The notes under the pieces were generated by a model, which worked only from the letters and a program-made list of their open reading frames with translations, had not been told where the DNA came from and made no database searches. The position numbers and the translations under genes are program-made. This document shows positions 6,001 to 30,000 of a stretch of DNA of 64,000 nucleotides, piece after piece. The stretch comes from Candidatus Omnitrophota bacterium (GTDB lineage: Bacteria; Omnitrophota; Gorgyraeia; Zapsychrales; JBDRMG01), in the NCBI GenBank assembly GCA_043812495.1, contig JBDRMG010000065.1, positions 2,339 through 66,338 on the forward strand, given 5' to 3'. The first letter of the stretch is position 1; each line of letters opens with the position of its first letter.

Positions 6001-9000
6001 AAAACAGAAGACGTGGAGGAAAAAGCCCTTTATGACTCCTTGGCCAGCGGAGTTATCAATTTCGCCATAGCTACACAAGATGAAAGAGGGGCTAATTTTA
6101 CGAGACGGCTGTTTATGCCGGCTTCGGCTTCCCAGCCTTATGATTTTAGAACAGGCTTTAATTCTAGCTTATGGTCTGCAATTGTCAACAATTACAGGCT
6201 TAATCCCAGAGAAAAGCTTTTAGAGCCTATGCAAAGTTTTACCCTTTGGCTTCTTGACCAACAGCAGACAGATACAGATACAGCTTATCAGGCAAGCTTA
6301 GGAGCGTTTAGCCGGGGAGATGTCTTTTATAATCCTGATAATCAATATGACCCTGAAGATGGGTATATTCCGCCCGCGGTCATAGATTCTCTTCATTATA
6401 CTGTTGTGGCTACCTCACGCGCTATGGGCTACATGGAGAATTATTACGGTATCATTCAATATACGGATACAGAGTTAGCCTTAGAAATCCAAGAGGCTAT
6501 CAAGCTGGCTAATAATTGGCTATTGACACAGTATCAGGACTATGGGATGTATGCCTTCTTTAATGTAGGCTGTGACCTCTACGGAAAGAACCTGCCTTTC
6601 GCTGGATTTCCGGATTTATTGTTAGAGTCTCAGGTCCTGCCTCTCTATGTATGGGATTATATAAGCTGGCTGGGAGTTGATTTGACTTCCTACAAGGGGG
6701 GCGTAGATTGGCTTATCGCCATATACGAGAAAGAGATAGAGTTTAACGCTAATAATATTAAAGGGTTTTCAAGAAATACATTTGGCGACCCTTCCCAGGA
6801 GAGCGTCGCTTCGCACAGCACTCTTATGGCAGCAGGGACGCTGGATTTATTAGGCGATAGCGCAGAGGCCTCATTTTACAGCAATGAAGTTAGCAAGTTA
6901 ATTACTGATGAGGGAGGAATAATATTTAGCGCAAGCAATGCCGGCAACCTGCCGTTTCCTTCCGACTATCATTATTCTTATGTCGTATCCGGCATCTGGT
7001 ATGTATATTCTGCCTTTGGCGTAAACGGCTTTAATCCTTTTGAGGTTGAGGATTCAATAATTACTCCTGAACAGCCGTTTATACTTCATCAAAATTATGC
7101 CAATCCGTTTGGAGGGGAAGGCACTACCATTGAGTATGAATTAAAGGAGCCTGTCAAAACAGTAGATATAGAAATCTTCAATATCCTGGGCCAGAAGGTT
7201 ATAGAATTCAGAGACTTGGAAAACGGGAAAGGAATTCACGAGATTAGATGGGATGGCAAGGACGGCAATGGAGAAGGCTCAGCCAGCGGTATTTACTTTT
7301 ACAGGTTAAAGGTTGACGGCCGCATAATAGAGTCAAAGAAGGCAATGTTGATTGGCGCAGCAGAAGATGATAATGCGCCGGTATACGGACAGGAAGAAAC
7401 TTCTCCAACCCTACCTCTTTTAGCTGGATTACTTCTGACTCCTGCGATTGTTACCAGAAGAAGAAAGACAGGCATTTTAAAGACTGCTGTTATGTTAGCC
7501 GGCCTTGGCTATGCCAAAGGCATTGGGTTTGTAAACGCCTTAGCAGAAATTATCCAGGCCAGATTCTTCCATAAACGAAGAGCCGCGCTGCGCAGGCTGG
7601 CTTCCAAGGCCGTCAGCAAAGGCGCTTTCGTGTATAACAAAATAGCTGAAAGGTTAAAGGAATTGCGGTCTCCTCGCTCTGTCGCTGCTGAAACAGAAAC
7701 AGCTCATTCCTCAGGTGAGGCTTTGACTTCATTGGCAGAAATCGAAAGAGCTATTCTTTCGGCTGAGGAAATCATCATTCAAGCTAAGAAACAAATAATA
7801 AAATGGGCGCTTGGCATGTCGATTCCTTTCCTATTTTTGCTTCAGGTATTACGCGCAGGTCTGACAAACGCGGACGCATATTATTTCTTCCCGACGAGAT
7901 ATATTTTAATTTTGGCTTCCCTGGCGGGACTTATCATGACGGCCGTGGGTGTTGCACGGCAAATCAGGAATTATAGAATTTTGCGTAGTCGCGAAAGGAT
8001 TGTCCGGGAATATAAAGGCATTATTGCGGAAAGCAAAAATTTACTTGCATCTCTTGAAAGAAACGGAGCGGGAGAAGGCGCCCAATCCGATGCCGACCAA
8101 ACTCTCCACGCCAACTTCATCACGCCAGAGATTATTGCGGTCATCGGGCTGATCCTTATGATTGCCGGAATTATGTATGCGCTGCGACTGTCAGGGACCT
8201 GTCCCGCTGGTTTTGCCAAAGGCAAAACTACCAGTGGGACAGGTCCCGAAGCCGCTATGAAGATAGCCTCGGGACCTGTCCCTGCTTTTCTGATTGTGAC
8301 GGGGATAACTTTGGCGGGGACGGGGATTTTAGCGAACAACAATCATCGCGACTTGCCGAGGACTTTCAAGAATTCAGCGGCAGGAAGGATGGGAATTTTA
8401 CCGAAATTTCCAAGGGACAACAGATGGCGGTCGCCGGATACGATACAATCAACCCCGCCTTCCCTGGCGGCATGGAGGAATTTATCATCCGAGGGGTCAG
8501 CTTTGACAATGGGATCCCTCCGGAGCGGTTCGACAAAGAACGCCTGGTCTTTGATTGTTTCCGCGATCTTCAGCACAGTGGCTTTTGGGATAATTTTCTC
8601 GAACTTGGGACGGTTGATCACTTCGACGAACTCATCAAAAATTCTGTCCGATAGGACCAGCGTAAATGTTTCCTGGGAGAGTTTATCGAGAATTTTGCCG
8701 CAATGGGAATACGGCTTCAGCAGGCCGGAAACAACAATGTTTGTGTCAACAACGGCCTTGAGCATATTGGTCTTGACGGTAGGCTTTTATTTCATCGTTA
8801 ATTTCTTTTTGAGAAACAAGATGTCTCCTAAGACGCTTGCGAATATCCTTAAAGATACCCTGCCATCTTTCGCGAAAGGTTTCGTTGTTAAGCTTGCGCG
8901 CCAATTTCAGCTTAAATCTCTTAGGCATGCGGTCAACGATTTTCTCGACCTCTTTTTCCGATATATTCATAGAATATTTAATCACGGTTTCTTCTCCTCC

Positions 9001-12000
9001 GATAAATTAAGTATAGTCGCTTTCTCTTGGCCTGTCAATAATTACTCCCCGGTTTCTAACCGCGATTCCCGCGAACTCCAGGCTAATTTCATCATGCCGG
9101 CCATAATGGCCGTCGCGGCGGTCGTATTGATCATGTACGGTATGATGGTAATAGCTGGCTTATTTAAGAATCAAATGCGCGCCTCTTCCATCCAGTGCCA
9201 GGGCCCGCCTAAAGGCGAGGCACGCCCGCCGGCGAAAACGAGAATTTCCCCCGCCCTAGCCATCCTCGCTCTTTCCGCTGTTCCTGCCTTCATCATTCTT
9301 TTCGCCGTCTTCTCCGAACACAGCCTTGCGTTTATGCCGGTCGCGTTGTCTGATATTGCTTTGCCGGGATTGATGGGAGTAATACGAATTACCTCCGCTA
9401 ATAAAAATGAAATCATTGCCGAAAACAATGGCATCACAGATCCCAATCTCATCTATCCGCAAGACACCATCCAGATGAAAGGATTTATTCTTCCGTTAGA
9501 TCTTTTAAGTCATCCTCTTGTCGTGTTATTGCTCATCGTTGCGGTTGCCGTTCTAAGCTTTAACAGAGTGCGCGAGAGACTCCTGACCATCGGACTTGGC
9601 GCTTTACTCCTATTCTCGGTGTATGCGCTCACGCCGTCCTATGACTCCTCTGATAAGACCTCAAGAATCCCGGCAGGATTGATACAGCAAATTCCGGATC
9701 ATTCAGGCATCCCGCAGGCAGGGCAACGCGCATCCGATTCCCCTGTTGTCAACGGAGCTACCGAAACTCCCCAAGAGGCCATTGTGTCTTATGTCATTAA
9801 ATCCGGCGACACCCTCACGGAAATCATCGAACGGGAACTCGGCGTCTCGGCCTATCGCCCGGTTGTCAATGGCCAGATGCCCTATGAAATCATTGCCGAA
9901 AACAATGGCATCACAGATCCCAATCTCATCTATCCGCAAGACACCATCCAGATGAGATCATTCCTTGGAGACATTTTCACGCCCGGGACCCTAGCGATCA
10001 TCGCCTTTGCTCTTATAGTTGCCGGAATTATATGTGTTTATCAACTCTTAAAAAACCGCGCGGCGGTTAAGGACATGCTTGAAACATCCCTGCAGCGCCA
10101 GGGCCCGCCCGCATCCGCCGTTCCAGCGCGAGCCGGGGTTCTCCCAGCTTCATCCAGAGGCGGACGCCGATGGCGACAGCCGAGACGACCGGTCATTTCG
10201 AGCGGATCTAGATGGGAAGTTTTCGCTTTTGCCGCATTGCTCATCGGGTTTATCTTCTTCTTTAAACCTTCGGCTGCCAAGGCTTCGGATTTTGTCGAAG
10301 ATCAAGATGGCAAGATCACCGCTGTTAACGTGGAATCCGGAGACACCTGGGGTCATATCACGCTTGATTATTACAAAACCCAAGGCCAAGGCGTTGGACA
10401 GCTCTGGGGACCGGACGGAAAGGCGTATACGCTTTGGAGTGAGGTTTATGGGCCAGGTTCAGATTATACAGATATGGATCACATAAGAACCGGCGAAACC
10501 ATTGATCTGACAGGACAGAGTCAAGAGGCAGGGGCAGCTAAATCTCCAACAAAATCCAAGAGTATACAGAAATCCGCAAGAGTCAAGAAGACCGAACCAA
10601 ACAAACAAAATCAGTCAAATCCAGCTAAATCACCTGTCAAATCCGCTCAACCAGAACCAGATTCAACGACAAAACCAGTGAAGAATTCTTCGGCCGGAAT
10701 TTCTCCGGATAGCTTGAAAGACAATTCGAAAATCCAATCTCAAGACAGCGCGAAGGCCGTTGATTCGACTCAAAACAAAAATGCCAATCTATCAAAAGAC
10801 AGCACAAAGGACAAATCATCTCAGAATAAAGGGTCCTCAAGCGGCAAGATCGGCGACGGACAATTTGTCTGGAAATTATTCGGCCCTATCGGAGCTGCTC
10901 TTCTCGCGATGATGGTCGCTGGAATCGCCTTTATTCTTCTTCGAGGCAGAAGCAAGGCAACGCCAAAACAAACAAAGAAAGAATCTGCAGCTACGCCTAA
11001 TGCCGGAGGAGAAAAGGCCGAAGACGTTCCTGGAGATACAGAAGAAGGTACGCCAATAGTTGAAGCTGCAGTTGTCGCTGGATCACAAGAAGCTTCCCAA
11101 ACAGTTGAGCCTGCGGACACGCAAGCCGTTGCTGCTGAAGGAACCGAAGTAAAACCCGAAGAGCCAGGCAATGGGTCTTCTGCTGAAGCTGAAGTTGTCG
11201 CTGGACCACAAGAAGATTCCCAAACAGTTGAGCCTTCGGACAATACTCAAGAAGAAAAACCACAAGCCGTTGTTTCTGAAGGAACCGAAGAAAAATCCGA
11301 AGGATCAGACAACGGGTCTTCTGCTGAAGCTGCAGTTGTTGCTGGATCACAAGAAGCTTCCCAAACAGTTGAGCCTGCGGACACGCAAGCCGTTGTTTCT
11401 GAAGGAACCGAAGTAAACTCCGAAGGATCAGACAACGGGTCTTCTGCTGAAGCTGAAGATTTCGTTGAGCAGGTACTGAATCATGACATTAGCGATCCCC
11501 TTAAGGATCAAAAAGGAAAGCAAGATGATGAACCTGGCGATGCCTCCGACACCCAAGGAGAGGAAACTTCTGGAATCGCTTCAGATGAACAAAACGCCGG
11601 AGATTTTCCGGTATCCGTTGAAGTTCGGGACGAAAAGAATACAGAAGCCGGAGTCCAGGGGCCTGGTCAGGAACCGGTTCGGGAACCGGCGTCTAGTGAT
11701 AATCCTGAAACCGGAGAACAGGACTATATTCCTTTGTGGATGATGGATGAGGATCCTCTCGGCGCAGTAGAGGATGGCTTCGAATTCCCAGAAGAAATAT
11801 CTGATTACACGGTCGAAGCACCGGACGCAACCGGAAAAATAGTCACATTCGCCTCCGGCCAAACATACTACATGGCCTATTACGATATGGAAACCGTCCT
11901 CTCGGACATGGCCACGCGGATTACCATAAAAGAGGACGGCAACGTCGTCGTTCGATTCGATGGAATAGGAAAATCTTATTTCTCGAAAGAACTATTTACC

Positions 12001-15000
12001 TGTTTTGAAGATGCCAGGAAAAGCTTGGAGAAAGTGAAATTGTTACAAGAAGTGGAAACGGAAGACAGAACCGGAGAAAAGAAAACATTCCGCCTTGGAC
12101 AAACGGTTTACTATCCGGGCCCGGAAAGAGATAAAATCGTATCCATAACTGTGGAACAGATACGGCAATATCCGGCGTTTATTCCTTGTTTTCACGAATT
12201 TAGGACCCGGACCAGGATCATCTCCCAGGGCGAAGCTTATCCCCCGATCCTGCTTTATACCGACCGCCAGGATGCGCAACAGGAAATCCTGACTTTATCA
12301 GAGGACGACAACGCCTTGGCTTTATTCGGCCATGACCTTGGCGGCATGAATCAAGCGCTGGCTGTTATCGTTGTCCTGGTCCTTGCGGCTTATGCCTATC
12401 GCTTCTTCAAAAACCGCGCGGCGGCGAAGGAAATACTTGAGACATCGGTTCAGCGCCAGGGCCCGCCTAAAGGCGAGGTAAATCCGCCGGCGGGAATAAA
12501 GATCTCCCCCGCCCTAACCGTCCTCACCCTCGCCGCCAGACTCCTCGTTCCCGCCGTTGCCCTTGTTCTTATCGCTAAAGAAATGGTCGAGCTTATATTA
12601 AACGGAACCTTCGGCAATCCGCAGGCCCTGATAGCCATAGTCGGCTTTGCGGGGTATCCTCAAAGATTTCACGTTGACCCAGAACAGGCATTATCAAAAA
12701 GCGAGAAGTTGAGAAAGCGCGTAGACGGTTTAATCGAAGAGAAACTATTGGACAAAGAAACGGCGGAAGCAGAATTTCAAAAACTCATCACAACGCGCAA
12801 TCTTCTCGGAAAGGCCAAGCGGCAGGAAAGAGGACAAGGAAACGAGGAAAAAGTGAACGCGCTGGAAAAAGAAATCTCACGCGTTAATGGATTAATCGCC
12901 CAGGTCAATAAATACAGGGGCCGCAGCAGAACCTATTTGCCGGATTCAAGAAACGAAAATAGCTCACTGCACGCGAATGCCTTATCGCCACTAGAAATTA
13001 CCCTTTTCGCCCTCATCCTCGCCCTTGCCGCGGCTGTATTATATCTGGCCCATCGATTCTTCAAAAACCGTAAAGTGCTTGATGCATCCATCCCGCGCCA
13101 GGGCCCGCCTATCGGCGAGGCACGCCCGCCGGCGAAAGCGAGAATTTCCCCCGCCCTGAAAATCCACACCGTTCTTCCCATCCTTAATTTTTATCAATCC
13201 GCCGCCGTACATATGCTTATAGATTTTGCATATTTATCTTATTGGCTGATTATCAAAGGGTTAATCAATATCGATGTGGTCTTGGGCATTGCCCATCTAA
13301 TCGGCAGAAATGAATATGATATACAGGATACAAGAAGCATGTTGCACGAACTTTGGTCCAAAATAAGAAACATCCGTTTTGTAACCACGAAGACGTATGA
13401 TCTCAGCAGGCTGAGCGAAGAAGGTCGAAGAATAATGGTAGATTTTGCTTTAGCCAACCAAGATACAAAAGTTCTGGATATCCGGTATCAAGCCTTATTA
13501 AAAACCCACCCTGCAGAAAATGATAATAAGACGACGACGCCTCCCCAAGGCGGCGGGTTAGGATTGTCAAAGATTGCCGGCATGTTTGTGAATCACCAAA
13601 TATCCTTAAGGCGGGCCTTTGCATTGGCGAAGAGAGATTACGCGGGCGGACTTAAATACTCCACCAAAGCCAACCTTGTTGCGGAAATCATCAAAACCAT
13701 TATCAAGAAAACAAGTCAAAAAGCCGCCGGCCTCATCCGCGGGCCGACATCCTGCGCTACAGCGCCAACTGGCACTTTAACCTCTAAAATCTATACTATC
13801 ATCCTCACGCCTGAGTCTGTCGCGGCCATCGGGCTGCTCCTTATGATTGCCGGGATTACTTATGGGTATAAATTATTAGGGACAGGTCCCTCTGGTAGTT
13901 TTGCCTTTGGCAAAATTAGCGGGACAGGTCCCGAAGCCGCTATGAAGATAGCCTCGGGACCTGTCCCTGTTCTTCTTTCTCTGGCCGCTATCGCCATCCT
14001 GATTCCCGTCTTCATCATTTTCGCCTCCCCACCCGAACATATTTTTGCGCTTATGCCGGTGATGGCTCTCGGGCAGATTGTTTCAAATGACAGAAAAGAA
14101 AGCGTATGGATCATTCCTCTTAGACCCGGCTGTCCCGTAAAGTTCAACATGAACAAAAAACAATTATTTGTTCAGGCAGGCGGTTTTCTCTTTACTTTTA
14201 TTCAGTATACCATCGAGAGGACCATTCAATATAGCTCCATGCTTCATCGTCCTCAGGAGGGAGGTTGGCAAGTCTGGGTTCCGTTGATCCCCATAGGAGA
14301 GACCATCCATGTGGGCGGTAGAATCCAAGAGGAATATCCCACTAACATGGTAACGCCCGTTTCGGATAAGACTGTCTCAAGTAGACATTTGGCCGTAACG
14401 ATTACGCCAGAGGGGTTGGCGCAATTAACAGACCTTGGGTCTGAAAACGGAACCTTCATCCATGCTAGAGCTGAAGAGGTCTCGGACCTTGTGGATATAT
14501 CGCCGGAGGCGGTGCTTGAAATCTTGAGACCATCAATGCGTCCGGAGTTGCAGCAAATAAGCGTGCTTGTGGAACTTTTCAGAATCAGAAAACTCGATGA
14601 ATATAAGGAGTGGTCTGCCCAGGGCGAAGACTCAGATGAAGACTCCGCGCATGCCTTGGTTGTATTGCCCGGAGAGAGTATGCTCTTGATTCTTGCCATG
14701 ATACCTCTTGTGATTCTGGCCATGATGATTCTGGAAATGATTCCCTCATCCAGACAGCATCATCCTGAGCCTGACACAACACGCCATGACCGCGAATCCG
14801 CCACCTTCGGTTCTTCTGTTGCCGCAAAAATCCAACAAGATATCGAAGCCATGCATGCCCGCAACCAACGCTCACGAGAGCAAGCCCATGACTCGGTGCG
14901 CAGCCTGATCGCACCAGATCCAGCATTGCTTCCGATCCTCATTGCTTTATTCGCTGTTATGACTTTCCTCATGTCACGTGACCTTAAATCCGCTACCTTT

Positions 15001-18000
15001 GGCTCCAAAGAACTTGAAAAAATGCATCAAGCCCGTGAAAAGGTCTTTGACTATGATGAGGAGTCACGAGAGCAAGCCCATAAATCTGTGCGCTCTGGAT
15101 CAGGACAGACCGCCTACGGCTTTGTGACGGGGGTCTCTTTATCACTGGGAGTTTTGGTTTTTGCCATTTTGACACTCATCGTCATTCGCGCCTCCATCAA
15201 GAGGGTAAATGAAGGTAAATTGGGCAAAGGAACAGCGCTTTCTGTTTACCTCCTTCTGGCAGGCCTGACCTTCGTTCTGGGCATCCTAGGGATCCGGCAA
15301 TTCATACCGGATTCGGAAGAAAGAACAGAACGCTATTATAATCTCAAAGTCGGCCAAAAGCCGGAAGAAATTGACCCCACCTTGGTTCATGAGGACCAGG
15401 CGGCTATTCTCACCCAAGGAAGACACGCCGAGACAAGCAATGTTTGGTACAACATGTGCAAGGTCATTGTTGCCATTGACACGACAAACCAAACGGTTGT
15501 GTTTGGTCATCTGACGCCTTGGATTGGCGATAACGGCCTGGAGAAAACGCCGCAGGAATATCAAGCTTTAATCGATAACTTAAAAGATGTTATGGAGTCC
15601 GAAGGTATTATTCAGAAGAATCTTGTCATCTATCTTGTGGCTAATCACAACACGGATATTACTTTGCTTGAGGAAATGCTCAAAGAATCTTTCCCGGGCC
15701 GGATCCGCAAGGTGATTTCGCCTTTTGACAATCAAAGAGAAATTTATGTTGCCGTCTCCAATGAAGAAGAGGGAATAGAAGTAACATCCGTTGGGCAAGA
15801 AGACAATGTTCCCAATAAAGTATTAGTCATAGATCCTCACACCGGACGGATTATTGAAGAAAGGGACGGGGCTTGGTATATGCTTTATCTTTATATAAGC
15901 GCCGGATTGGCAGCCTATTACTTATTTGGCCATGGCGGTCTTTCTGCTATTGAAAGCCGGTCAAGAAGACGGAAAAGACAATCAACAGCTGATAGGGACC
16001 GATTATATCACGGCCTTGTTTTCCCCTGTCTCACAGGCACCATCATCGAGATGGCCGCGGTGGTCCTTCTAGCTGGGCTTGGGGTTTGGGCGGCCCAAAG
16101 AAGAAGGTCTAGTAGGCTGATTGATTCGGAGAATGGAAACAAGGAAACAGAACTTGACGGAGAAGAGTTCGTAGCCGCTCAGTTCTATCGACTCTACGGC
16201 GCTGACAAGATTAAAGATTTTAGCCCGGCATTCACCATTTCTGAGGCGAAACGCTTACTGGAAGCCGGCTTAGATGACATGGTGCAAAATCTTTACAAGC
16301 AGTATGGGGAAATTATACCTCCGGAAATTAATGCTCCTGAATTACGAGAATTGGTCCGCGGAATCCCTGAAGATCAGCTAACCTTTAAGAACGTGGCCCA
16401 AGCCTTTTCTGGTTATTTAAGAAAGAAATATGATCTTTATAGCAGAGGCAAAATGGACCGCGCTGCAATTATGGATCTGGGTGAGCAGGAGAAAAATATT
16501 CTTCGGTATGTCTTTAGATTATTCAGCGACAATATCCAATACGACCATCAGGGCGCAGACGGCCAATGGAAATCAATACTTTCCCATGCCATCGAAGGCA
16601 ATCCGTACATTGAAGGTAGGCCGCGTACCTATATCTGCGAAACAGCATGCGCTTTGGCCATAATGGCCCTGGAAGAAATAGGCTTAGGAGCAACGCCGGA
16701 TAAAAAACCCTCTAAAATCGGCATCCACAAAAACTTTAAAGGAATAGACATGAGCCAGGGCGGCCATGTGGCTGTTTTATGGAAAACCGTTAATGACGCC
16801 GGTATTTTTGATCTGACGCAGGGACTGGTAGATCATGATGGGCGCTCTTGCCTGGCGAACATAGACATCAATCATGAAGTTCTCAAAATCAAGCAAGCTA
16901 ACGGTCAAGAGCGATTCGTTCGCTATGGCAGCAAAAAAGATTTAGAGCCCATTCAAGGTGAGACCTTTAAAGATCTTCTCGAAGACGAAAGAGTTTGGGC
17001 CAAATACCATGATTTGACTAATAGGAACAATGCAATTGATTTTCACGCGTCTGACAAAGGCAGCATTTTGCTGCAGTCACAGAAAATTTTTAAGGAAGCA
17101 GATGCTTTAAGTAATCTTCCGGTCGTTCGTCGAGATCCGATATTAAGTGAAAATCTGAAGAATCTCAAAGCCACTGCTCAGGCTAACATACAAAGTCTCA
17201 ATAGATCTGATCGAATGAGGAATGCGTACGAAGCCCTGAAGCGACACACAGACACTTTAAACCGAATTCATCGAGTATCCAATGGGAACCATGAGCTTGC
17301 TGAAAAATCCTACACAAAACTAGCGCAAGATATAAAAGACACAATCGCTTCGCTTTCAGCCGACTCAAGGTTTATAGGAGCCACCGCAAATGATGTCAAT
17401 TTCAGATTAATAGCAGTCGACGCATACGGAAATAAGCGCGAGCGAAAAGTCGGTGGTCAGGGAATCATTGACGTCCTTGAAGATCTTAAGAAAGATGCCC
17501 AAGAACATGCTTTGATAAGCTGTTATTTCTCTAGATTTAAAAAAGCAAACGCGAGATTCCAACAAGGAGAAGACGTATTTCCAGATCCAAAGGCCGGGAG
17601 TAATTTCCAAGCGGCTTTAAGCCAATATATTTCTCTTGAGAGAGAAATTAAGAAAACTCTGCGGACCCCGGGCATTTCCAATCCAAGCATTATTCAAAAC
17701 CTAGAGAGCCTACAAGATACCATCGCTGCAAATAAAGATGCCGCAGCCGATAACATAAAAACGCTTGGCCAAACTCCACAAATGGAATCATCCCTCGGTC
17801 TCATCCTCCCCGGCGTGACAGGCACCATTATCGATGTACTCGTAGTCGCCCTGCTCCTGGCCGGGCTTGGGGTTTTGGCGGTTCAAAGAAAATGGTTTTC
17901 GAAACTAGGGGATAGGATTAGCAATGAGCGTTTAGCGTTTAGCGTAGAGCGTATAGTTAGAAATACTAAACGCTATACGCTATCTCCTATCTCCTATCTC

Positions 18001-21000
18001 CTATCCGCTATCCGCTATCCGCTATCCGCTGTCTGCTATCTCCTATCCGCTCCACGCTATGCGCTCTACGCTACTCTTCTCATAGCGGCCGTTGTTTTAG
18101 GCGGCTCGACCGCTTTTGGCTTGAGTTTTGCGATCATGCCGTTTTTGGCATCCATACGCTCGGAGGATTCTGATCCGGACCGGGAATCCCAGACGACGCA
18201 CGTCTCGATGATCCTTTCTCAGCAAGATGAGGACTTCGTTCTTGCTATCGGAGAACAATCTTTCAGAATACAAAAGAATTTAATAAAACAGGAATTTGCG
18301 GCTATTACTCAGAACGGAAAACAGATACAAGACGCGAACGTCAGACTCACCATGCACAATCTCCTTGCGTTTAATTATTTCTTCTGGCTGTATCAGCAAA
18401 AACAGAAAATAGCCAAAGGATCCGCTGATTTTATGGGCGATCTTTATGCGCGCCTAAGCATTACGTATGACCAGAAACGCGTTATTGTCCGTTACGCTTA
18501 TGGGGACGCGCCGCTTGAAGACCAGAGCGAGCATGCCTGGAGTTATGGGTTTGAGATTAACCGTGCCACCGGAGGCTATAAAGCCGAGATTCAGGACAAA
18601 GGCCTCGAGGCATATGAGAAAAACATGCTTTTTAACCGGTATGTCGAATATTTCTTAAGCATTTTAGCGACAGTCCACCGCGTTTTGGATCCAGCGACAG
18701 AGAAAGAAATGATGAGGCTTCTAGAAAAGGCATATTCTTCGAATGATTTCACAGGGTTTTATCGCCGCATTCCCGGCGAACCGGAAATCGAAGAAAAGAA
18801 AGGCGATAGCGGTCGACCAAACCTTACTTTCGGCGGTCTCATTCTCCCTGGTCTCACAGGAACCATCATCGAGGTACTCGTAGTCGCCCTGCTTCTGGCC
18901 GGGCTGGGGGTGTTGGCCCAGAAGAGAGGATGGTCCCGACGCTTTCTGAATAAAACAATTAAGGTAGTCGGGATCCCGACTTCAACAATTTCATTTAAGA
19001 GAACGTCGGGATTCCGCAGGCTGACTAATTCAGAGAACAGAAACCAAAGCACAGAAACCAAAGAAAAGAAAACCTCACCCTACTCCTCCGCCAAAAAGAA
19101 ATTCAGCAAAGCCTTCCCACTCATTGTTATTCTCATAGCCGGTGCTTTGGTGGTAATGTTTATGGATATGCGCGCTGATGTTTATGCATCTGATGATGTT
19201 AAATCTTCAGCCTTAACAATGATCCATATTCTCATAGCCACCACAGCCTTTATACTCTTGCCTTCCTTGTTGCGCTTGCTTGGATATGACAAATGGGCTG
19301 CGCGCTTAGAAAAAGTCTCTTTTGTCGGAATATTTGTGGGCCTTGTTGGACTTATGTCTGCTTCAATTTTTGTCCCCGCCCAGGCCCAGGCGCAGACAAA
19401 TCCGTTCAACACATTCTCTCCCGATGAGCCGGATGATGACGGAAATAATGGTCTTTATGGGGATGACGAGACCAGCAGTCTTCCAGCGACATTTATAACA
19501 CAAGATTATTTATTAGATTTGATTCAAAATGCTGAATGGGGAGTTAAAATATTTACAGAAGATCAATGGAATAATAATGAAGATTTAAAGGGTTGTGAAT
19601 ATCATTATGGAGGCGCTGTTGGTGTTCCTGCGACTCAAACAATGTATTATGCCGGTACCATCGCATCCACAGGGCATTTGTCTCATGAGACAACGCATGT
19701 TCTTCAATCATCCTTAACTCAGGAAGAGCTTCTGGAAGCCTATGACGGATTAGCGGGAGTTATCAGAAACCAAGAGGCTAAAGACATTCTAAGTAAATTA
19801 ATGGATGCTTATTTAACGACCTACAATAAACTTCTAATAGAGTGGGTAAACAGCCAAAACCTTCTTACCGATGAAGAAAAGAAGACGATATTGAAATCCA
19901 ATGGAGCTGATGAGACGTTTGCTCTTCTCTTTGGCATGTTTGTGGGAGCTTGCCAGCCAAGCGAATCGAATCTGGCGACCTGCCATCTTGATGAATACGG
20001 AGTGGCCAGACTGACTGAAATTTTATTGGAAAGCGAAGAAGAGAACGAAGCAAGAGAATATCTTGCTCGTTACTATAGAGATTTAGGTTACGATGAGAAT
20101 TTGGTTAATAACTTATTGCAGACAAACGGTACCCAATTAGGGGCGAATAGCTCAATAGAGCCAGAAGCTTCTTTAACTATCTGTGACTGGTTTATGCCAG
20201 GAGTGGTAGTTGGTGCGGAGGCAACTTCTGCCCCTGCCCAGGCGCAGGATATTATGCCAGTCTCTGGAGAAAAAACAGATACTGATTCAGATTCGACTAA
20301 GAACGATAATCGAAATTTTAAAACAAATCTACTTAATACTTTAAGAAGAATTGGCAGTTCGGCTTATGAAAAACCAAAACCTTATCAGGTGGCGCTAAAT
20401 AATCACCACGGGAGCGCAGATCAAAGCTTAAGAACAGAAACGAGTTCATTGAATCCAAGCGATCGCTATTGTGTAATAAAACAAAACAGAGCTCTTTCTA
20501 TTAATAACCAAATGCAAAAACCTCCTCTTCTTATGCCAGATAGTATTGTAACATTCCAGAATCTTGAAGAAGCGAAAGACTATGATATTCCAGAAGGCTG
20601 GCCCTATGCTGTCTTGCAGTTCAAAGAATGGCCTATTTATTACATTAAATTTATTGATAATTTCATACAAGGATTGGCTTTTGACCGGATGGTTTATTAT
20701 GTCGAAGTAGAGCCAGGCGTTCTTTTATTTGATCGTGAACTAAGAGCGAAAGAACAAGATATGAAAACATTTGGCGAGGGAGGACGTGATTTTCACTTAA
20801 ACGATGTAGTCGCATTCTATAATGAAACCAAGAACAAAAATTGCCCATTGAATATCATGGAGTTCAGATTGCTCGCGGAGTTTATAAATGCAGGTTTGAT
20901 CCTTCGAACAGAAAATGGATACCAACCAGCTATGGAAGCGGCTATTATGAGCACTGATTTGTTAGGAGAAGAGCAAGCGCTTAAGCAGGAATTTGATCAT

Positions 21001-24000
21001 ATGGTTTATTTTATCGATGAACAATATAGGCAAGCGGCTGATAGTCTTTATCTGGCGTTTTCTGAAGAAGACCGCCAATTTGCCGTAGACGTTGTGACCG
21101 CACTCTTTATTTATAATGATCAAAATCCAAATCTTATGGCCAGAGAAGTGGCGGGTTTCTTTAGAGAACCATGGGATCTCATCTATAACAATTTAATCCA
21201 CGTTGACACATCTCTTGCCGCGGATTCCTCAAGAATATATCAATTGGGCGAACAGGTAATTTCTCTTGAAGACCAGAGCGAAATATATAGAGATCTTGGC
21301 AGACAACAAAGATTGCTTGGATATAAGAACCTTGTGGCGCAGCTGCCGGAAAAGACAAAGCGTAATTTCCTAAAGGGCGTTAACGAGATGCAGCTCATGA
21401 CGAGAAAGCCATCCCCTTGCTTAGGCCTCATCCTCCCTGGCGTGACGGGGACCTTGATTGAGGTGCTTGCGTTATTGGCTATCGCTGGACTTGGGATTAT
21501 ATGGATTTATCGAAACTGGTTTGCTCTGAAAAATGTTTATAGCCGAATTTCTAATAGAATTCTTAGTGTGGTCCTAGGGCCGTTGGCGCAAGGAAAGGAT
21601 CATCCGTGGTCCCGACGCTCCGACCATAGGTCGGAGGTCGGGACTCCGACTTCCACAATTTCATATGGGGAAACGTCGGAGCTGTCACAAAGAAATCATT
21701 CGTCGACTGGAGACCAGATAACAGTTTACAGAAACCAGAATAGGCCGTTGGTGCCAGTCGTTCCTTCCGTGGCAGGAATTTCGACTGTTACGCCAACGGC
21801 CTCTTCTTTATTTGTTATGCGAAATAGAATAAACGGAATTTACTTAACAGCTTCGAGGTGGGTCAGCCGCTTGCCGAAATCTTCCTTGATGGTTCTAATA
21901 TCCTCTTCCATTTTAGCAAGCTTGCCGTTTATTTTTGTCAGCTCCTCTTTCATGAATGAGGAACGAAGGCTTATCGTTGTGATATCTTCCGCGTTTCTAG
22001 CCACCATTCCCATTGTGGCGTCCAATTTATCCCGTAAAATGCTCTGGCCTTCTGCAATCGCTCTCATGTCCGTATGGATCTTCTCAAGCACGACTGCAAA
22101 TTCCCTGTCTTTGGAGAATTCCTTCAATGGCTTTGTTGTCTTATTGCCTTTGATCTTCATGATGGCGCTTATTTTAATCCAGCACAAAAATATTGTCAAG
22201 AGTATTCTATCGGTAATGAGTCGTGATTCACAAAAAGATCTTTATCGACGATGGACAAAGGGCGTCTCACGTCTCGCGTCTAACGTCTCACATCCTACGT
22301 CTCGCGTCCTTCGTAAAATTTTCAGCGGCTCAGCCCAAACGACCCTCTCATCTCCTTCTTCGCTGAAAGGCTTGCGCGTTCAGCTTCGAAGGACAAGCGT
22401 GGCTTCAAAAACTAATCAACCATTAGAAAAGATTTTCAGCAGCTCAACTGATGCAGCCCCATCTACCGTGCGCCGGCCTTCCTTTGATATTAAGCCTGAG
22501 GAAGCCGGCATCCCGACTTCCACGAATCAAAATCTCGGCAGAAGGCAGAATCGTAATAACCAATCTTCATTTTCCGTGGCTGGTGAGGAAAATTGGGGTC
22601 CTTCTGCCAAGATTTTATCAGGAAAAATCGGGACTGGTGAGAAGGTTGTTCAAGTTGCGCAAAAGGACAGGGTCCGAGGTGCCCCCCTCCGCACTTCGGG
22701 CTCTGTCCGTAGTCCTTTGGCTGCTTCGGTCGTCATGAGCGTGGCAACACCCGCGACGGGCCTCGAAACAAACTCATGGTGGTTTAGTCCGATCTTCGAC
22801 GGGATCCCATTGACGCCTTATATCATTATCGTCAGTATTCTTCTTTTATTGTTTCTTACCTCTCCAGCTTGGCTATTATGGCCGATAAAATCGGCACGAT
22901 CTAAAATTCCGGATCATGTTGAATGGAAACGATTAAGCCGCAAAGATAAACGAATCGGCGTTGAAGACCTTGAGCGCTTCTTGAATCATCCTGACGGTGT
23001 AGTAATAGATATTAGGACCGACATGTCAGGGAAACAAATGGCGGAAATGCTCAATGAAAGATTTTCCGCGGTCCACACTCCCTACCGAAGAGGTTTTGCC
23101 GCACTTTACGACCGTATCATTCGGACGATTTTGAAACAGGTTTTGCCACAGCAGCCTCTCTTACCAACATCCTCCCCCCAAGATGAAATAACCGCGATTT
23201 ACAATATAGTTTCCAAAATTGCCTCCCCTCTTTCTGAAGAGGAAAAGAGAGAAATTGCCTTTAGGGTTTTGAAAGAAGCTAAAGCGGATATCAAAAGACA
23301 GGTTGAATCACCCGCAAAGTCAGACATCTTTTCTAAACTCAAGGCCATGATGTTTATCATGGCCGGTATCGTAGCTTTCGGGTCATCCAGCCTCTTCGGG
23401 GCCCAACAAGGACCCTTCCCCTTGGAAGGTTCCGCGATCCCCCATAGTTTCGCCTCTGGCGAAACTGTCATGGGGAATCCCGACTTCCTTAATATTGATT
23501 TAGGAAACGTCGGGACAACCGCGGCAGACACAGTTGCGCAAGCTGCAGCAGGTCTATCGGACATCACAACAATCGGATTGATTATTTTGGCCGTTCTTGC
23601 TGTTGGTGTTATGGGAGTAGTGATTTCCGTGAGAATGCCAATCAAATCCCATGTTGCCGAATCAAAGGCATGGAAGTTTATTCGCACCCACTACAAAAGC
23701 ATTCTTGGGATGGCGGCGGTTGTGACCATCGGGATTTTGGCCTGGCAATTCAAGCCATGGGTAGAGCTATTGGCTGCTTTTGGCGCTTCCAATTGGATGA
23801 TCAAAGCCTTCAACTATGTGGTGGCGGCTAATGTGGCCATGTTCTTAGTTCTTACTTTTGAGAAATGGAAATCCGAATACCAAAGAGTTAATCCTTTCAC
23901 CTTGACAAGAGAAGAGATCATAACCGAGCTTATGGAAAGATATAAGGCAAAAGACACGTCACGGCCGTGTCCCGCGGGCACGGAAGGAATGATCGCGGAT

Positions 24001-27000
24001 ATTCCAAAGATGTTAGAAAACTTATCCGATGGAGATCTGCGCTATTGTTATCTTGCCCTTTCTAAACAGGAAAAGGCATATCGCCCATTTAAAGCCGGTC
24101 AAATGCCAAAGACGACGATTGAGAAGATCAAAGCCAGCCGCCTGAGCCTGGCTGTGGAATTAGCGGAAAGTTATCTTGAGGCCAAGAAAATATTCAACCC
24201 ATTAACACGAAAAGGCCTAAGAAAATGGACCTCTTGGGTCCTCTTCGTTCCCTACTTCTTAGCCCGCGTGACCTATCATTTTATTACGTCCCGTTCCACG
24301 CAAAATATCAAGCTCTTAAAACAAAGATACGATTGTGAAAGAGGCGTGTTCCTGCCGGCAGCCTATGAAGATCCTGAATACTATCTGGCCGTTGAATTGC
24401 GCAAAGCGCAAAAAGGCTACACAGCGCTTGAAAAAGCCTCCCTGGCTGGTTTTGCCTCAACCATGGTCGCGCCCATCGCCAGCGGCCAGGGAACATGGAT
24501 TTTTGGACGGGTGCTTTTAGCTGGTGTTACCTGGCTTGTGAGCGCGACGTTTGCGCCTCTTCTGGCGGGATTGTTCATATTCGCGCCGCTTGTTTTTCTT
24601 TTGAACTTAATCGGATTAAACGGTCTTGGGTTGACAGCCTTTGCGATCCGCATCGGCTTAACTGTTTTGGCCTTATCTCCCAAACGAGGCCCGACGCAAG
24701 TTATCCATTTGTTGAAAACGGCCGTGAGGTCAAAACTCTTTGACGCAAAAGGCCGAATCATGACACTGGATACGGCAAGAATCATTGCCCAAGGCGATCT
24801 TTTGGATAGTCAAAAGCGCGACATCATCCGAGAGGCCTTCACAAAAGGCTGGACCTACAATGTTTTTGGCAACAGAAGTCTTGATCTTTTCTTTGAACAA
24901 GCCTTGGGTGTTACCAAAGGCGCCAATGAAGACGCGATATGGATGATTCCTTTGGCTGTTATCGCTTATATCCTTAATCCATTCTTTGCGCTTCCTTCAC
25001 GATGGATATCCAAATTCATCATGGAAAACAAGTTCATTCAAGATCCCCAAAACATAGTAAGGGCCAATTACCTGATCTCAGGCCTGGCTAATCAGCGATG
25101 GGGATTCGCCTCAAGCTCTGTCATGATGTCATTGATTGGCGTTGAAATCGGATTATTTATTGGGGGCACAGAACTGTTAGGCGGTCCGTTTGAAGTTATC
25201 GGCCATGCCGCGGAAGGACCAGACCATAGTTATATCGGCATCGGCCATACCATCCTTACCCCCATAGTGGATATCGTTGATCCGATGCATGATATTTGGC
25301 TGCCTCTAGGCGATACCTTATTGGGCGGCAAGGATAGTTTAGCAGATCATTATATGGCCCACCAGATAGGTACGACAGTTGAGAATGCCAAACGCTATAA
25401 TCGTCTTTCAGAGGAAATCCCTGAATTAGAACAAGAAGCAAGGGATTTAGGCGCGCTAAGGAATTTGCTTGGTCATGTGATTAAGGGAGACCTGCCGCTA
25501 TTCACTGCCGCGACATTAACTTCTGGCCCGTCAGCCGGAGCGGATAAACTCTTTGCCCCAGCAGACACAACTATGCTAGCCGGGATCGTCCCTGATTCAT
25601 CGGTCAGCCCGGATTCTGAGCCGCTGGCTCAGAATAACAACCCTGAGCAAGCCTCGCCATTTATGGCGGGGCGCGTCGAAGGGCTGGCTGATATGAGCTT
25701 GGCCAGCGTTAGCTCTCCTTCTGCCGATAGCGTCCATGATGCTATTGACCTTTTCTTTGCCAATGACGTTGAGAATGCGCCGGATTCAAAGCATTCAAGC
25801 GCCGATGATACCGTGAAGATCGCAGCCATATATACAGAGAATCAAGCTGACTCTCATGAGGAAGGCGCGGCAGCCGCGGATGAAGAAAACGCGATTGATT
25901 CTGATTCTGCTTTGTCCCAAAGATATGCCGGGACTTCGCAAGATGTATCCGCAGCCGCGGATGAAGAAAATGCGATTGATTCTGATTCGTCCCAAGGTGT
26001 TATCGGAGCTTCGCAGAATGGGTCTATGGAGTCGGCCGCGGAGGTTCATGTGAAAATAGACGAGGCCTCCGCGTTAGAACACATGCAGGCCGATCTTAAT
26101 AAAACAACAGAAGAAGAAATTAAGAAAAATACAAATCAGACAGATCGACAAGAACAGATAGAAAAAGTTAAAGAAGCAACCCAAAAAGATCCATTGATAG
26201 AGAAAGCAAAGGTTGAACTTGCCAAAGTCGAACAAGCTATTACAGAGAAAAGCGAACAATGGAAAGAGAAACAAGAAGAGCTAAAAAGCGTTCAAACCGA
26301 TATTCGAAAAGATCAGCTGACAAACGCCATTAAGGATTATGATGTTGGCATCAAAACAGAAAGCCAGGAATTCTTAAAATTGACCAGCCAGCCTGGATAC
26401 GATTTTTCCGGCGATAGGACCGCCAGAGAAATGCTTCAGGTTGTCCGGACCATGACAGGAAGCCAGGAAACCGGCGATATTTTCACAGCGGATGAAGCAA
26501 GGGTATTAGTGGAAGAGCAAATCGCGTTGATTGATAAAGAGAACGAAACAGGCGAATCGCAGGATCCCCGCGCTAAAGTAGCGAAAAGCCTGGAAGCCCA
26601 ACAGATTTGGCTCAGGCTCCCGTCGGTGGAAGAGCGCCATTCAGAAGTCCTTGATCTGCCGCCTTTTATTGCCGAACGTTTTGGCTCAAGAAGAATTGAT
26701 CTTGAGAGAAAATGGGTTGAGCTCAGTATCAAAGACAATGATTCGGACCAGGAATTGAGCGATGAAGAGAAAAAAGATTATGATGCCATCCGGGCATCTT
26801 ATCAATACATCAAAGCCCATGAAAGACAAGATGAATTCAAAAAGAACCCGCCGACAAAGCGAAAAGGCTGGCAAGCCACAAACGAAGATATCCAGGATCT
26901 TGTCGATGCGGGATATTTAGACCAATGGACAGTATGGTTAGCCCATGCTACAAGGCAAAACTTAAATGAAGCGGCCCTTGAGGCCGTGGCTGTTTTGCAG

Positions 27001-30000
27001 ACCATCCATGAGATTGATGAGCGCAAATTCGGCTATCCTGTTTTTGGTCCTGAAACGCGCCAGGCCCTGGAAAAAGATTTGGAAGACGTAGTAAATCGCG
27101 AGGAACAACTCTCGTTCAATCGCTTGGAGCGCCATGGAACAGAAGATCCGGATCAGTTAAAGAAACTTGACGACGAACAAGAGCTGCTGACAAAGGCAAT
27201 CGCGGAATATGATCAAAAGATATATAACGCCATAGTACAGGCCCAGGGCGAAGACATTGACACGCAAGAATTAACCGCCGCATTTGACCAGCAAGAAAGC
27301 GCGCAAACCGATTCCCAAACCGATTCCCTGGACAGCTTTGTCCTTTTTGACCCGGATAAACCTCTTAAGATCCGCAAGGATGAAGAGGGCGACGGTCATT
27401 ATCGCGCCGGCCGCGAAAGAGAAGAAACAGGAAAAGAGTGGGAACATAAAGGGATTGACCTTGTTGTGGAAACCAATATGTTTATTTATGTTCCAAAGGA
27501 ATTTGACGGCGCGAAAGTCACAAGAGCTGATAAAGATCAATTTGAGAGTACGGATCATTACGGCAATGTCATTGACATTACCAAGGTGATCAATGGGGAC
27601 ACATACACATTACGTATAGCTCATGTGGGTACCGTATGGCCTGATCTCGGAGACATTGTTAAAACCGGACAGGTCTTGGCGCTCACAGATGTGATCACAG
27701 GATGGGCTCATCAGTCCATGCTTCCGGGTTCCAAAATGCTCGAACATATTCATGTTGAGATCTTGAAAAATGGTAAAAATGTTGATCCAGAGGAGCATAT
27801 GACAGGCATTGAGGCTTCAGACGAAGACTCGCCCGATAAGAAGGAATATTTAGAAAAGCGTTCAAAAGAAACGAATCCGGCCACGGCCGTTCCGCAGTTT
27901 ACGCCTGTTGTCCCTGAAGCAATGCAGGCCTCTGTTGTTTATGGACCGGAAGGCGACTCCACGCGCGTCTATCAAGATGTCGCTCAAGAGCTTTATGAAG
28001 AAGTCGATACCGGCCGCGAAGGCCAGGTCGGATTCGGCGCTGTCGGCGCTAAGAGCGTTTTGCCCACGGGTTATTTCACGAGTAAAAATCTCAGATTCAT
28101 ATTGAGCGGAAGCAAAACAGAAAAAGCCATCCACGGAACGCTCTATTGGCAGAATTCCTGGATGAATTCCGCCGCAAGAGGACTCTATAGCGAAGATATC
28201 GCCAGCCTTGGCATTAACAGCAAGGTCCAAACAGGCCGGTGGGCCCTTCTCTTTGACGGCACCTGGATCAAGAGCTTGGTCCCCAAAGAGGATGAAGACG
28301 GGGTTGAAATAAGATACCATGACGACACCTTCTGGCAGACTTATAATCTTGGCGCTGAATATACGGATAACTACCTTCACGTGGGAACAAATGTTTTCGT
28401 TAATCCTCAGGCCGAGGGTGAAGACGAGGAAGTCCTTGGTGACGTGAGCGTCGAAGCGAAGCTGCCCTACGGTATCGGTGAAGTGAGCGGTAATATCTAT
28501 GGTCTGGGCGATGATCCGGAAAGCAGAACATCCAGTGGTTTCATTTCCGGTGCCATTCAAAAGGAAAGATTCAACTTCAATTGGGATGTTGTCAAGCCCA
28601 CAAACTCAGAGAAATTTAATTATAACGCTCAAGCGAAATTCCCGCTCGTAAGAGATAAAGATAAAAACCGCGATGTGACCTCGATCAGCGTCGCGGGCTC
28701 GCGCGTCTATAACTCGCCTTATAATACGGACGGGTCCGCCGCTTATTTTATGGACGCTCAATTCGCGTTCAATCCCACCTGGGAATCCCGCTTAAGCCTG
28801 CGCGCCGATAAACTATTCACCAATCAAACAAGATATGTTTCTGACGTCTTTGTCGGTGATTGGTCTTTCAAGCCGCATTTTTATGGTGATTATAATGATC
28901 AAGGACAATATCACAGCCGGTTTGAATTGGCTCCTCCGCTTGGCCAAAAGAGCAGCCTGGCGTTCTATATCAACGGCCAAAAAGAAGAAAGATTTACCCG
29001 TAGAGGATTTAGTTTTTCCTACAACGATCGCGTGCGCTTTGGTGTTTCCGAAGGCCAATCCGGGGCCTTCTATCCGACGGGCAGCGTGGATTTTGGACGC
29101 TTTAGCATCACAGGACAAGGGATGCGCTATCAAGGAAGAACAGAAGTCGATGTGATCGCGACGGTTGAAGACGTCAAATTCCCTATCATTGGAGTTGTGG
29201 GCGACATCAACGGGGGTGCGCTTGTCGATGAAACAGATAAACCTTATTTTCACGTGGGCTTTAACTTTGATGCGAGAAGCCTTTATGGCAGAGGCGGAAA
29301 TCATAGCACGCCAGATCAGGATTACAGTGACTCGCGTATGTCCAGCCTGAACTCTGTTCAAAGCGTATCGAGCGCGAGCCGCGAGCCAATGCCAATAAAA
29401 AGAGTGTTTGAGCTGATGGTTCAGAACGCTCCATCTCCAGATAAATTGCAGGCCGGCATCTCCCTCTCATCGTCAGACACGCCTGCGACAAACGCGCCAG
29501 AGACTGGCTTACAAGAAAATGTTCTGACCATTAAAAATAATCCAGGCATTAAGAAGACGGGCGGCTCTTCCGCGTCAAATGTGACAGAGGCTGACCTCAG
29601 AGAATACAATCTGGCTATTGAGAAGATTCCGGCCCTTGGAGAGATGACCGCTGACAATCCCAAGGCGCGCGACATGCTCTTGAACGCCATGGTCCTTCAG
29701 GTCGGCCCCGGAAAAATCTATAAAGATGTTCAAGCCTGGCAGGCAAATCTCGCGGGATTGGCTGGCTTGAGCGAGCCGCAGCTTGTAACGGAGCTGCAAA
29801 TACAGTCTAAAGAAGATTTCAATACCGCCATCAAAGGGCTATTGCGCAAATACAATCTTTCCTTGGCAGACATTGATCCCATTCTCAAGGCTGTCTTAGA
29901 CCTTCTGGGCGCGGTGGCCGTCGAAATCCCTAATACCGATCCGGTCGAATACACCTATCCATCTCTCCCTGCCGATCAATTGTCAGCGGGCCATAAGGCC

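Follow-up and report, generated by a model that had tools for sequence, protein, structure and literature searches.

Among the closest systems described so far are the giant genes of the Omnitrophota, whose products are reported to combine tens to hundreds of transmembrane (TM) helices with GT5/GT1 and TPR domains, and in the text of the two preprints dealing with them the cleavage of these proteins appears as an openly stated question (bioRxiv 10.1101/2023.11.21.568195; 10.64898/2026.06.07.730766). The present analysis concerns a 64,000-nt stretch of contig JBDRMG010000065.1 (hereafter the window), in which a tripartite motif, composed of a conserved edge, a hydrophobic helix and a basic tail, occurs four times inside one very long open reading frame (ORF). 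An earlier reading of this DNA (the original prediction) had taken these motifs for sorting signals left behind at the ends of fused genes. On balance, we lean towards the view that they are paralogous copies of one reusable membrane-anchor helix within a giant multi-pass protein. The locus bears on two open literature questions about bacterial giant genes, namely their origin and whether their products are cut, and a conserved anchor at the ends of modules offers a motif that can be checked directly for neo-termini by proteomics.

Four paralogous motif copies in a giant reading frame

Frame +1 of the window (1..63999, forward strand) contains no stop in 21,333 codons and is open at both ends, compared with 846-1,529 stops in each of the other five frames. 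Since this stop-free frame runs off both ends, the whole window has to be regarded as a fragment of one giant gene. A Kyte-Doolittle scan reveals 65 helix-like hydrophobic peaks, 51 of them within the first 8,400 codons, and domain scans (Pfam over the whole frame, NCBIfam over the first 20,000 codons) place TPR repeats, a PMT_2-like membrane glycosyltransferase, LysM, FHA, an M23 peptidase, GlgA, a sugar-nucleotide (NDP-sugar) pyrophosphorylase and a phosphomannose isomerase (PMI) in this one frame. A divergent SecA DEAD domain was not found in the 21,333 codons scanned, the gene extending past both window ends. With at least 21,333 codons, 65 predicted helices and GT5/GT1, TPR and sugar-metabolism domains united in one frame, the product is probably an Omnitrophota-type giant multi-pass membrane protein, an attribution made from this architecture and from a single relative of the motif in another protein (see below).

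The four copies follow the pattern GL(I/V)(L/F)P(G/C)(V/L)TGT(I/L)I(E/D), continued by an AGLG-containing hydrophobic helix and a basic tail. Counted from the first glycine, they lie on the forward strand at 16012..16107 (copy 1, aa 5338-5369, GLVFPCLTGTIIEMAAVVLLAGLGVWAAQRRR), 17797..17895 (copy 2, aa 5933-5965, GLILPGVTGTIIDVLVVALLLAGLGVLAVQRKW), 18835..18933 (copy 3, aa 6279-6311, GLILPGLTGTIIEVLVVALLLAGLGVLAQKRGW) and 21424..21519 (copy 4, aa 7142-7173, GLILPGVTGTLIEVLALLAIAGLGIIWIYRNW). The predicted four tripartite motifs are present at these starts, although the basic tails had been given in the wrong order: the one with QRRR is that of copy 1, whose edge (LVFPCLTGT) is divergent. Across 50 aligned positions, the four copies all agree at twelve (G, L, P, TGT, I, AGLG, R), and a profile built from the four copies, as the original prediction had proposed, retrieves exactly these four from the ORF. 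Other helices of the frame are built on a similar plan of hydrophobic residues, proline, helix and basic tail (FITPE..., FIMPA..., VVLPGE...), and at least two further paralogous anchor families are found in the ORF.

The substitutions among the four copies are biased towards synonymous sites, with pS of 0.44-0.71, which is near saturation, pN of 0.17-0.41 and dN/dS of 0.21-0.59. Because of this bias, the copies have to be old, translated and constrained as a peptide; they are under purifying selection and have been kept as a peptide rather than being a recent DNA repeat. One could also suppose that the motif is a DNA-level or chance repeat which has no peptide role and is merely translated, as the DNA between the modules does contain other repeats of exactly such a kind. 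However, the pattern of substitutions led us to reject a DNA-level repeat, and chance is at odds with four matches at 86-94 bits when the next best score among 21,333 residues is 6 bits, so that this explanation is hardly credible.

With 19-residue Kyte-Doolittle means of 2.14, 2.84, 2.58 and 2.38 for copies 1 to 4, the anchor helices are long enough to span a membrane. In copies 2-4, the number of K and R residues rises from 0-1 upstream of the helix to 3-6 downstream, and by Kyte-Doolittle scan and charge counts these copies display both a positive-inside bias and an alternation with re-inserting helices. Copy 1 lacks this bias, its basic flanks on both sides leaving the orientation ambiguous. 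The mechanism that we propose is clearest for copies 2-4: the anchor would be a stop-transfer sequence which terminates a soluble module at the outer side of the cytoplasmic membrane, and it would cross the membrane from outside to inside, held by its basic tail in line with the positive-inside rule. The chain would then pass through a positively charged cytoplasmic loop of little-constrained sequence, until the next signal-anchor-like hydrophobic helix re-exports it. Insertion would proceed co-translationally via Sec/YidC, and the conserved LPGxTGT-IIE edge and the AGLG core would probably define the outer membrane boundary and the packing of the helix.

Several points weigh against this reading. 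The predicted topology was derived from a Kyte-Doolittle scan and charge counts, and the uncut state of the chain is something that we infer. Moreover, copies 1 and 2 are 585 residues apart with no helix between them, and an uncut chain could not run inwards through the membrane at both; for this reason copy 1 would have to be inverted, its upstream flank being as basic as its tail, or inactive, or cut off. Finally, the LPGxTGT-IIE edge is more conserved than a plain anchor needs, and it is common to unrelated modules as well as to an unrelated protein. In this respect it appears to behave like a portable recognition signal, which keeps a slim chance of a role in recognition or cleavage alive.

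Such a role would make the motifs processing sites, at which a polyprotein is cut near LPG(V/L)TG by an outer-leaflet membrane enzyme such as one of the sortase, exosortase or rhomboid type; the outside modules would be set free or re-attached by the cut, and the motif would constitute a new class of sorting or cleavage signal. Both the tripartite architecture and the predicted position at the outer boundary suit enzymes of this kind. Strong purifying selection acts on the juxtamembrane edge, which is retained in two giant proteins that are otherwise unrelated; successive outside-to-inside anchors such as copies 1 and 2 would be possible only if the chain is cut, and the cleavage of giant Omnitrophota proteins is, as mentioned, a question under discussion. 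Besides, P, G, TGT and AGLG are helix-breaking residues reminiscent of rhomboid substrates.

On the other hand, the curated C-terminal sorting-signal models yielded no score above cut-off for any of the four copies. The best scores all concern copy 1 (GPS-CTERM 15.5 vs 28, VPLPA-CTERM 14 vs 25.35, MYXO-CTERM 11.5 vs 20), copies 2-4 gave no -CTERM score, and among models of the LPXTG type only strep_LAETG gave a score, reaching 13.8 of the 30 bits required, again on the copy 1 helix. The same models were also compared with ten further anchors from this frame, none of which passed. With six residues, LPG(V/L)TG (FPCLTG in copy 1) is one residue longer than LPXTG and is not an LPXTG motif; the original prediction, too, had set the motif apart from LPxTG, PEP-CTERM and PGF-CTERM. 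A hydrophobic segment and a basic tail are present as in sortase signals, but the extreme C-terminal position is absent, all copies being internal. Sortase, exosortase, rhombosortase and rhomboid domains were not detected in the 21,333 codons within the scope of the domain scans given above.

An exhaustive profile search of 1.84 billion representative proteins produced a single true match, P0001 (MFH1360522.1), a 3,320-aa partial protein which fills a 10-kb contig of a Candidatus Omnitrophota metagenome-assembled genome (MAG). Its motif (SAYGLILPGVTGTLVEVFVVALLLAGLGVLAIRF..., aa 1761-1791) is internal too and is followed by a basic loop and a new helix, without a conserved linker; apart from the anchor, P0001 and the window protein share nothing. 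Four further AGLG-type helices of P0001 lack the LPGVTGT edge, which argues that the helix and not the edge is the common unit and thus speaks against processing. The original prediction had raised the question of proteins that carry the motif at a true C-terminus. None was found among the 1.84 billion representatives, the GTDB species genomes and the JGI metagenomes, collections that do not include the source genome. The four-motif profile had no match in a word-indexed collection of 5.8 billion proteins, and nothing was confirmed in the JGI metagenome scan with the motif peptide pattern. A match among the GTDB species genomes, in a multi-helix membrane protein of Occultella which we take to be DoxX-like, was judged to be due to chance.

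Taken together, we consider it improbable that the motifs are processing sites, and equally improbable that the anchor is the recognition site of a membrane protease or transpeptidase which divides giant proteins of the Omnitrophota into their modules on the outside of the membrane. If it were, these proteins would have their first defined processing signal, and the motif would be a new class of sorting signal acting within the chain.

Two side observations on P0001 may be added. A unit of ~130 aa (RINAPNGVLEGIRVSGDQGLGYPDIGVLGTKY...) follows its AGLG-type helices three times (aa 30-166, 2450-2574 and 3247-3320), and since both contig ends carry it, the assembly was probably interrupted there by a DNA repeat. 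The GYPDIG peptide of this unit may, at the protein level, correspond to a TCCCGAC-type palindromic element (described below) read in another frame.

Inter-helix loops and their repeats

The soluble modules delimited by the anchors are ordinary coding sequence. Module 1 (16141..17775, aa 5381-5925, forward strand, as are all features of this section unless stated otherwise) has a normal coding signature and no detectable homologue; module 2 (18151..18825, aa 6051-6275) is likewise normal in its coding signature and net acidic; and module 3 (19378..21405, aa 6460-7135) has a net charge of -7.5 per 100 residues. The original prediction had placed a low-complexity linker and then a hydrophobic segment after each motif, which applies to copies 2-4. 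After copy 1, there is neither a linker nor a hydrophobic helix; a well-coding soluble module of ~550 aa starts directly, where the highest 19-residue Kyte-Doolittle mean is 1.42 and the fold z-score -0.3.

Linker 2 (17896..18078) carries a net charge of +12 per 100 residues, lacks the GC1>GC2 signature and has a fold z-score of -5.0; heptamers are arrayed in inverted orientation at 17906-17996, and ~15 units of 7 nt follow one another in tandem at 17973-18073. It leads into a helix that would re-insert the chain (18079..18150, aa 6027-6050) and that is followed by an acidic stretch. Linker 3 (+23 net charge per 100 residues as a whole) begins with a palindromic element discussed below, and the rest of it (19012..19113) harbours a 14-nt tandem repeat at 19034-19071. 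A signal-anchor-like helix (19114..19170, aa 6372-6390) and two more helices up to aa 6457 come next. The helices at aa 6027-6050 and 6372-6390 exist as quoted in the original prediction at ~18060 and ~19090. Linker 4 and the adjoining low-coding stretch (21520..22821) are rich in S, T, R and P and include three serine-rich helices (aa 7295-7393), a hairpin at 21737-21807 and a 7-nt tandem repeat at 22262-22314.

Linkers 2-4 thus form a group of their own: they are rich in S, T, N and P, with net charges of +8 to +23 per 100 residues, whereas the modules between the anchors are neutral to acidic (-0.6 to -7.5). The linkers are also without the GC1>GC2 pattern, which the modules have in common with the remainder of the ORF: GC at codon positions 1, 2 and 3 amounts to 0.52-0.54, 0.34-0.36 and 0.36-0.50 in the modules, as against, e.g., 0.48, 0.48 and 0.42 in the linkers, and in a periodic Markov codon model the linkers score ~0 relative to background, yet frame 1 is still the best frame. 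Where the period is not divisible by three, every well-supported tandem repeat of the ORF lies in a linker; two weak two-copy arrays (period 13; period 17-18) fall within module 3. The hairpins of the linkers reach fold z-scores of -3 to -7, and over the whole window 12 of the 17 90-nt windows with a fold z-score below -4 lie in inter-helix loops, where 3.5 would be expected. The simple repeats and strong hairpins which the original prediction had noted in these linkers are therefore real. The same does not hold for its antisense genes: the other five frames contain 50 stop-free runs of at least 100 codons, and we rejected the two antisense ORFs, which have no Pfam match, as chance ORFs.

The composition of the linkers fits unconstrained cytoplasmic loops, although, taken alone, it would fit translated former intergenic DNA equally well. 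The latter possibility belongs to the reading of the original prediction, according to which the motifs are fossil gene boundaries: separate genes for secreted, C-terminally anchored proteins would have been fused in frame together with the DNA between them, so that the motifs would once have been C-terminal anchors and the helices after them signal peptides. The linkers are indeed non-coding-like, and the tripartite shape of the motif is that of a C-terminal anchor. Moreover, the segment KKKFSKAFPLIVILIAGALVVMF...VYA|S after copy 3 resembles a complete signal peptide. However, copy 1 has neither a linker nor a following signal-like helix, and promoter-like and terminator-like sites occur at the level of shuffled controls (20 vs 23.4 and 22 vs 21.3 expected, respectively). 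In addition, the similarity among the copies does not stop at the basic tail: (D/S)RISN is common to copies 2 and 4, and copies 3 and 4 share 29% identity along 180 aa, a range that spans the linker, the palindromic element and the next helix. Similarity of this extent points to a duplication of anchor units that were already internal.

A further argument comes from the hairpins themselves. Those after copies 3 and 4 share a double-stem element of ~60-85 nt, which has the form TCCCGAC-GCT-[hairpin]-GTCGGGA, then YYCCGAC-TTC-[hairpin]-GAAC-GTCGGRR. With a covariance model of this element (R1), five copies are found in the window, all in inter-helix loops and with all three reading frames in use. 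The first (18934..19011, 62.4 bits) directly adjoins anchor 3, starting with the next codon, and is translated as SRRFLNKTIKVVGIPTSTISFKRTSG, and the second, in linker 4 (21610..21681, 71.9 bits, fold z-score -5.2), is read as SRRSDHRSEVGTPTSTISYGETSE. A degenerate copy lies in the linker 4 stretch (22471-22540), and a partial copy (23449..23515, 30.8 bits), read in another frame (GNPDF), lies in a loop, 18 aa upstream of the aa 7857 helix. The weak fifth copy (57027..57099, reverse strand, 17.9 bits, E 0.008) is situated in a loop between the helices at aa 18955 and aa 19072.

Outside the window, a pattern search with the element returned 27 metagenome loci (L002-L028). When 21 distinct copies are aligned, the second stem (P2) shows perfect covariation at its two outer pairs with no broken pair, and the pairing of the first hairpin is kept through five pair types, i.e., by compensatory changes. 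The metagenome sites include the inside of a 23S rRNA gene (L008) and of an RNase P RNA gene (L010), 16S-23S spacers (with five copies in one operon) and positions beside or within tRNA gene fragments, and in 24 of 26 loci the element resides in non-coding DNA. It is in frame in L005 (a 1,224-codon open frame, read EVGTPTS) and in L022 (a 226-codon open frame with weaker gene evidence, read EVGIPTS), and copies in the window read VGIPTS and VGTPTS. The element is not in Rfam, and a search of the window at the Rfam gathering thresholds returned no family. Judged from its dispersal, it is best regarded as a selfish palindromic repeat which survives at permissive sites.

The identity of this dispersed repeat explains the hairpins after copies 3 and 4 without relic terminators, so that an interpretation of these hairpins as intergenic relics is not needed. 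The preference of the repeat for non-coding DNA elsewhere could be counted in favour of gene fusion, but the hairpins are explained by a mobile element which also inserts into rRNA and RNase P RNA genes. Under the anchor reading, the loops, being unconstrained, would have gathered selfish DNA in the form of the in-frame palindromic repeat of some 70-80 nt and of tandem repeats whose period three does not divide, and it is these repeats that would give them their intergenic look. The inter-helix loops may therefore be seen as dumping grounds for selfish palindromic repeats and frame-shifting microsatellites, and DNA of intergenic appearance within a giant ORF does not by itself argue for fusion.

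Some further observations concern repeats of this kind. In linker 2, ~15 units of CTATCCG/CTATCTC face four inverted units (17906-18073), and CGTCTCA is repeated ~6.6 times at 22262-22314; the gain or loss of one heptamer unit would stop translation within ~10-100 nt, which makes these arrays a possible slippage switch truncating the giant protein. Downstream of a second anchor family (...ANFITPE / ILTPES plus helix) there are two perfect hairpins (8205-8290 and 13870-13975, read as SGTGPEAAMKIASGPVP; fold z-scores -7.3 and -6.8). These hairpins are 95% identical to each other, compared with 76% in the flanking coding sequence, which suggests selection at the nucleotide level or recent conversion. 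One of the metagenome contigs with the palindromic element (L015) contains a group I intron at 1706-1961 (Rfam RF00028, 79.5 bits).

An internal T9SS domain and the origin of the giant gene

Outside the region of the four anchors, the frame contains a C-terminal sorting domain of the type IX secretion system (T9SS) at 7063..7353 (aa 2355-2451, forward strand), where TIGR04183 scores 34.5 bits against a cut-off of 23 with a match spanning aa 2366-2446. When the segment is taken in isolation, CHU_C (28.9 vs 27) and FlgD_ig (37.8 vs 27) pass as well, whereas PF18962 (21.1 vs 27) fails. Its nine database homologues are proteins of 491-968 aa, and in all nine the domain is terminal: eight of the alignments end 1-2 residues before the C-terminus, and that of P0011 ends 21 residues short of it, within the same terminal domain. 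About 520 aa upstream, a signal-peptide-like segment (5704..5793, aa 1902-1931, forward strand, RREGYLRAGPVKGLILSILFAAALYISPVFS) opens the unit which ends in the T9SS domain, and a low-coding stretch (5554-5733) overlaps the start of this segment and extends upstream of it. Directly after the domain, a short helix and RRRK follow (PTLPLLAGLLLTPAIVTRRRK). A relic start codon with a Shine-Dalgarno sequence was sought ahead of aa 1902, with nothing convincing found there, and the all-alpha domain which precedes the T9SS domain had no match in a PDB sequence search.

As a domain that is terminal in nine homologues is internal here, at least one complete secreted-protein gene has to have been absorbed in frame, and by comparison with these homologues we regard aa 2355-2451 as a true fossil gene end within the giant ORF. 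Since ~19,000 codons follow it, the domain is a relic and cannot act as the usual terminal signal. The idea of fused secreted-protein genes is in this way vindicated in principle, at a site outside 16024-22870, the range for which it had been put forward, while it finds no support at the four motif sites themselves.

For the anchors, two more arguments in favour of fusion have to be considered. The GlgA (glycogen synthase) of the frame is full-length (TIGR02095, 408 bits vs a cut-off of 328), and the complete enzyme, in the region 44746-46770, is embedded from its first residue (KKLNIVAVSPEVAPFSKSGGLGDV). The anchor closes three or four non-homologous modules and is the sole feature common with P0001. 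Against this, no protein ends with the motif in the collections searched, and modules 1-3 have no homologues in which synteny could be followed; a search with aa 5300-7700 gave 0 matches at E<=1e-5. Together with the similarity of copies 3 and 4 through linker and next helix, this makes it rather unlikely, in our estimate, that the four motif sites are fossil gene boundaries. The two ideas are nevertheless compatible, since fusion is a statement on the origin of the chain and the anchor reading one on its present function.

Module 3 contains a HETTH motif of the HExxH type between anchors 3 and 4 (19684-19698, aa 6562-6566), which may point to a zinc metalloprotease exposed on the outside; this region matched neither a family nor a structure. 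AlphaFold2 predictions without an alignment were unusable, with a mean pLDDT of 32.8 for module 3 and of 37.4 for the unit that ends in the T9SS domain.

Among the other features of the frame, six tandem 102-nt units with 87% identity near the start of the window (202-826) encode TPR repeats. A domain of ~130 aa (HAKPRLGFTEDDVV...NDNPNP...HEN) directly upstream of GlgA recurs three times with 54-82% identity, also at 47959-48333 and 56329-56769. Between 8058 and 8823, the codon model ranks frame 1 below frame 3 and below one antisense frame; the longest of the open runs outside frame 1 (198 codons, 8058-8651, without a Pfam match) overlaps with this stretch.

Comparison with known systems

Giant many-helix genes of the Omnitrophota are already known, and the window agrees with them ('Archaeovorins' and multi-enzyme genes) in an ORF of more than 20,000 codons, dozens of TM helices and the combination of TPR, GT5/GT1 (GlgA) and sugar-nucleotide enzymes, as well as in the fact that the sole relative of the motif is a protein from an Omnitrophota MAG. 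A SecA-like domain, which most members of the group have, was not seen in this fragment. As far as term searches of the two preprints show, the anchor family, the internal T9SS gene end and the repeat-colonised inter-helix loops are not mentioned there (bioRxiv 10.1101/2023.11.21.568195; 10.64898/2026.06.07.730766).

The anchor itself is similar to the stop-transfer and signal-anchor helices of polytopic membrane proteins, i.e., a helix of ~19 residues with a K/R-rich flank that alternates with re-exporting helices, and as in such proteins the presumed inside loops are net positive and the presumed outside modules net acidic. It differs from ordinary stop-transfer helices, which are not conserved paralogues, in being a unit of ~33 aa with an invariant juxtamembrane motif, reused four times here and once in P0001. 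With the tripartite sorting signals (sortase LPXTG; PEP-CTERM and PGF-CTERM; rhombosortase GlyGly-CTERM), the anchor shares the succession of motif, helix and basic tail and the attachment to unrelated passengers. In contrast to these signals, it is internal and thousands of codons away from any stop, and it fits no curated model; compared with LPXTG systems in particular, it has the six-residue LPG(V/L)TG, with no cognate enzyme in the window and no terminal instance in the databases searched.

The T9SS domain at aa 2355-2451 corresponds to described T9SS sorting domains (TIGR04183/PF18962/CHU_C), as it passes TIGR04183 and CHU_C and aligns end to end with terminal domains, and it is set apart from working ones by the long coding sequence downstream. 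Finally, Rickettsia palindromic elements are described as short palindromic repeats that are inserted in frame in protein-coding genes (PMC10969869). Like these elements and miniature inverted-repeat transposable elements, the repeat of the window is a dispersed short palindrome which is read through in frame and tolerated at permissive sites, whereas it belongs to another sequence family (the TCCCGAC/GTCGGGA double hairpin) and is mostly found in the surroundings of rRNA, RNase P RNA and tRNA genes.

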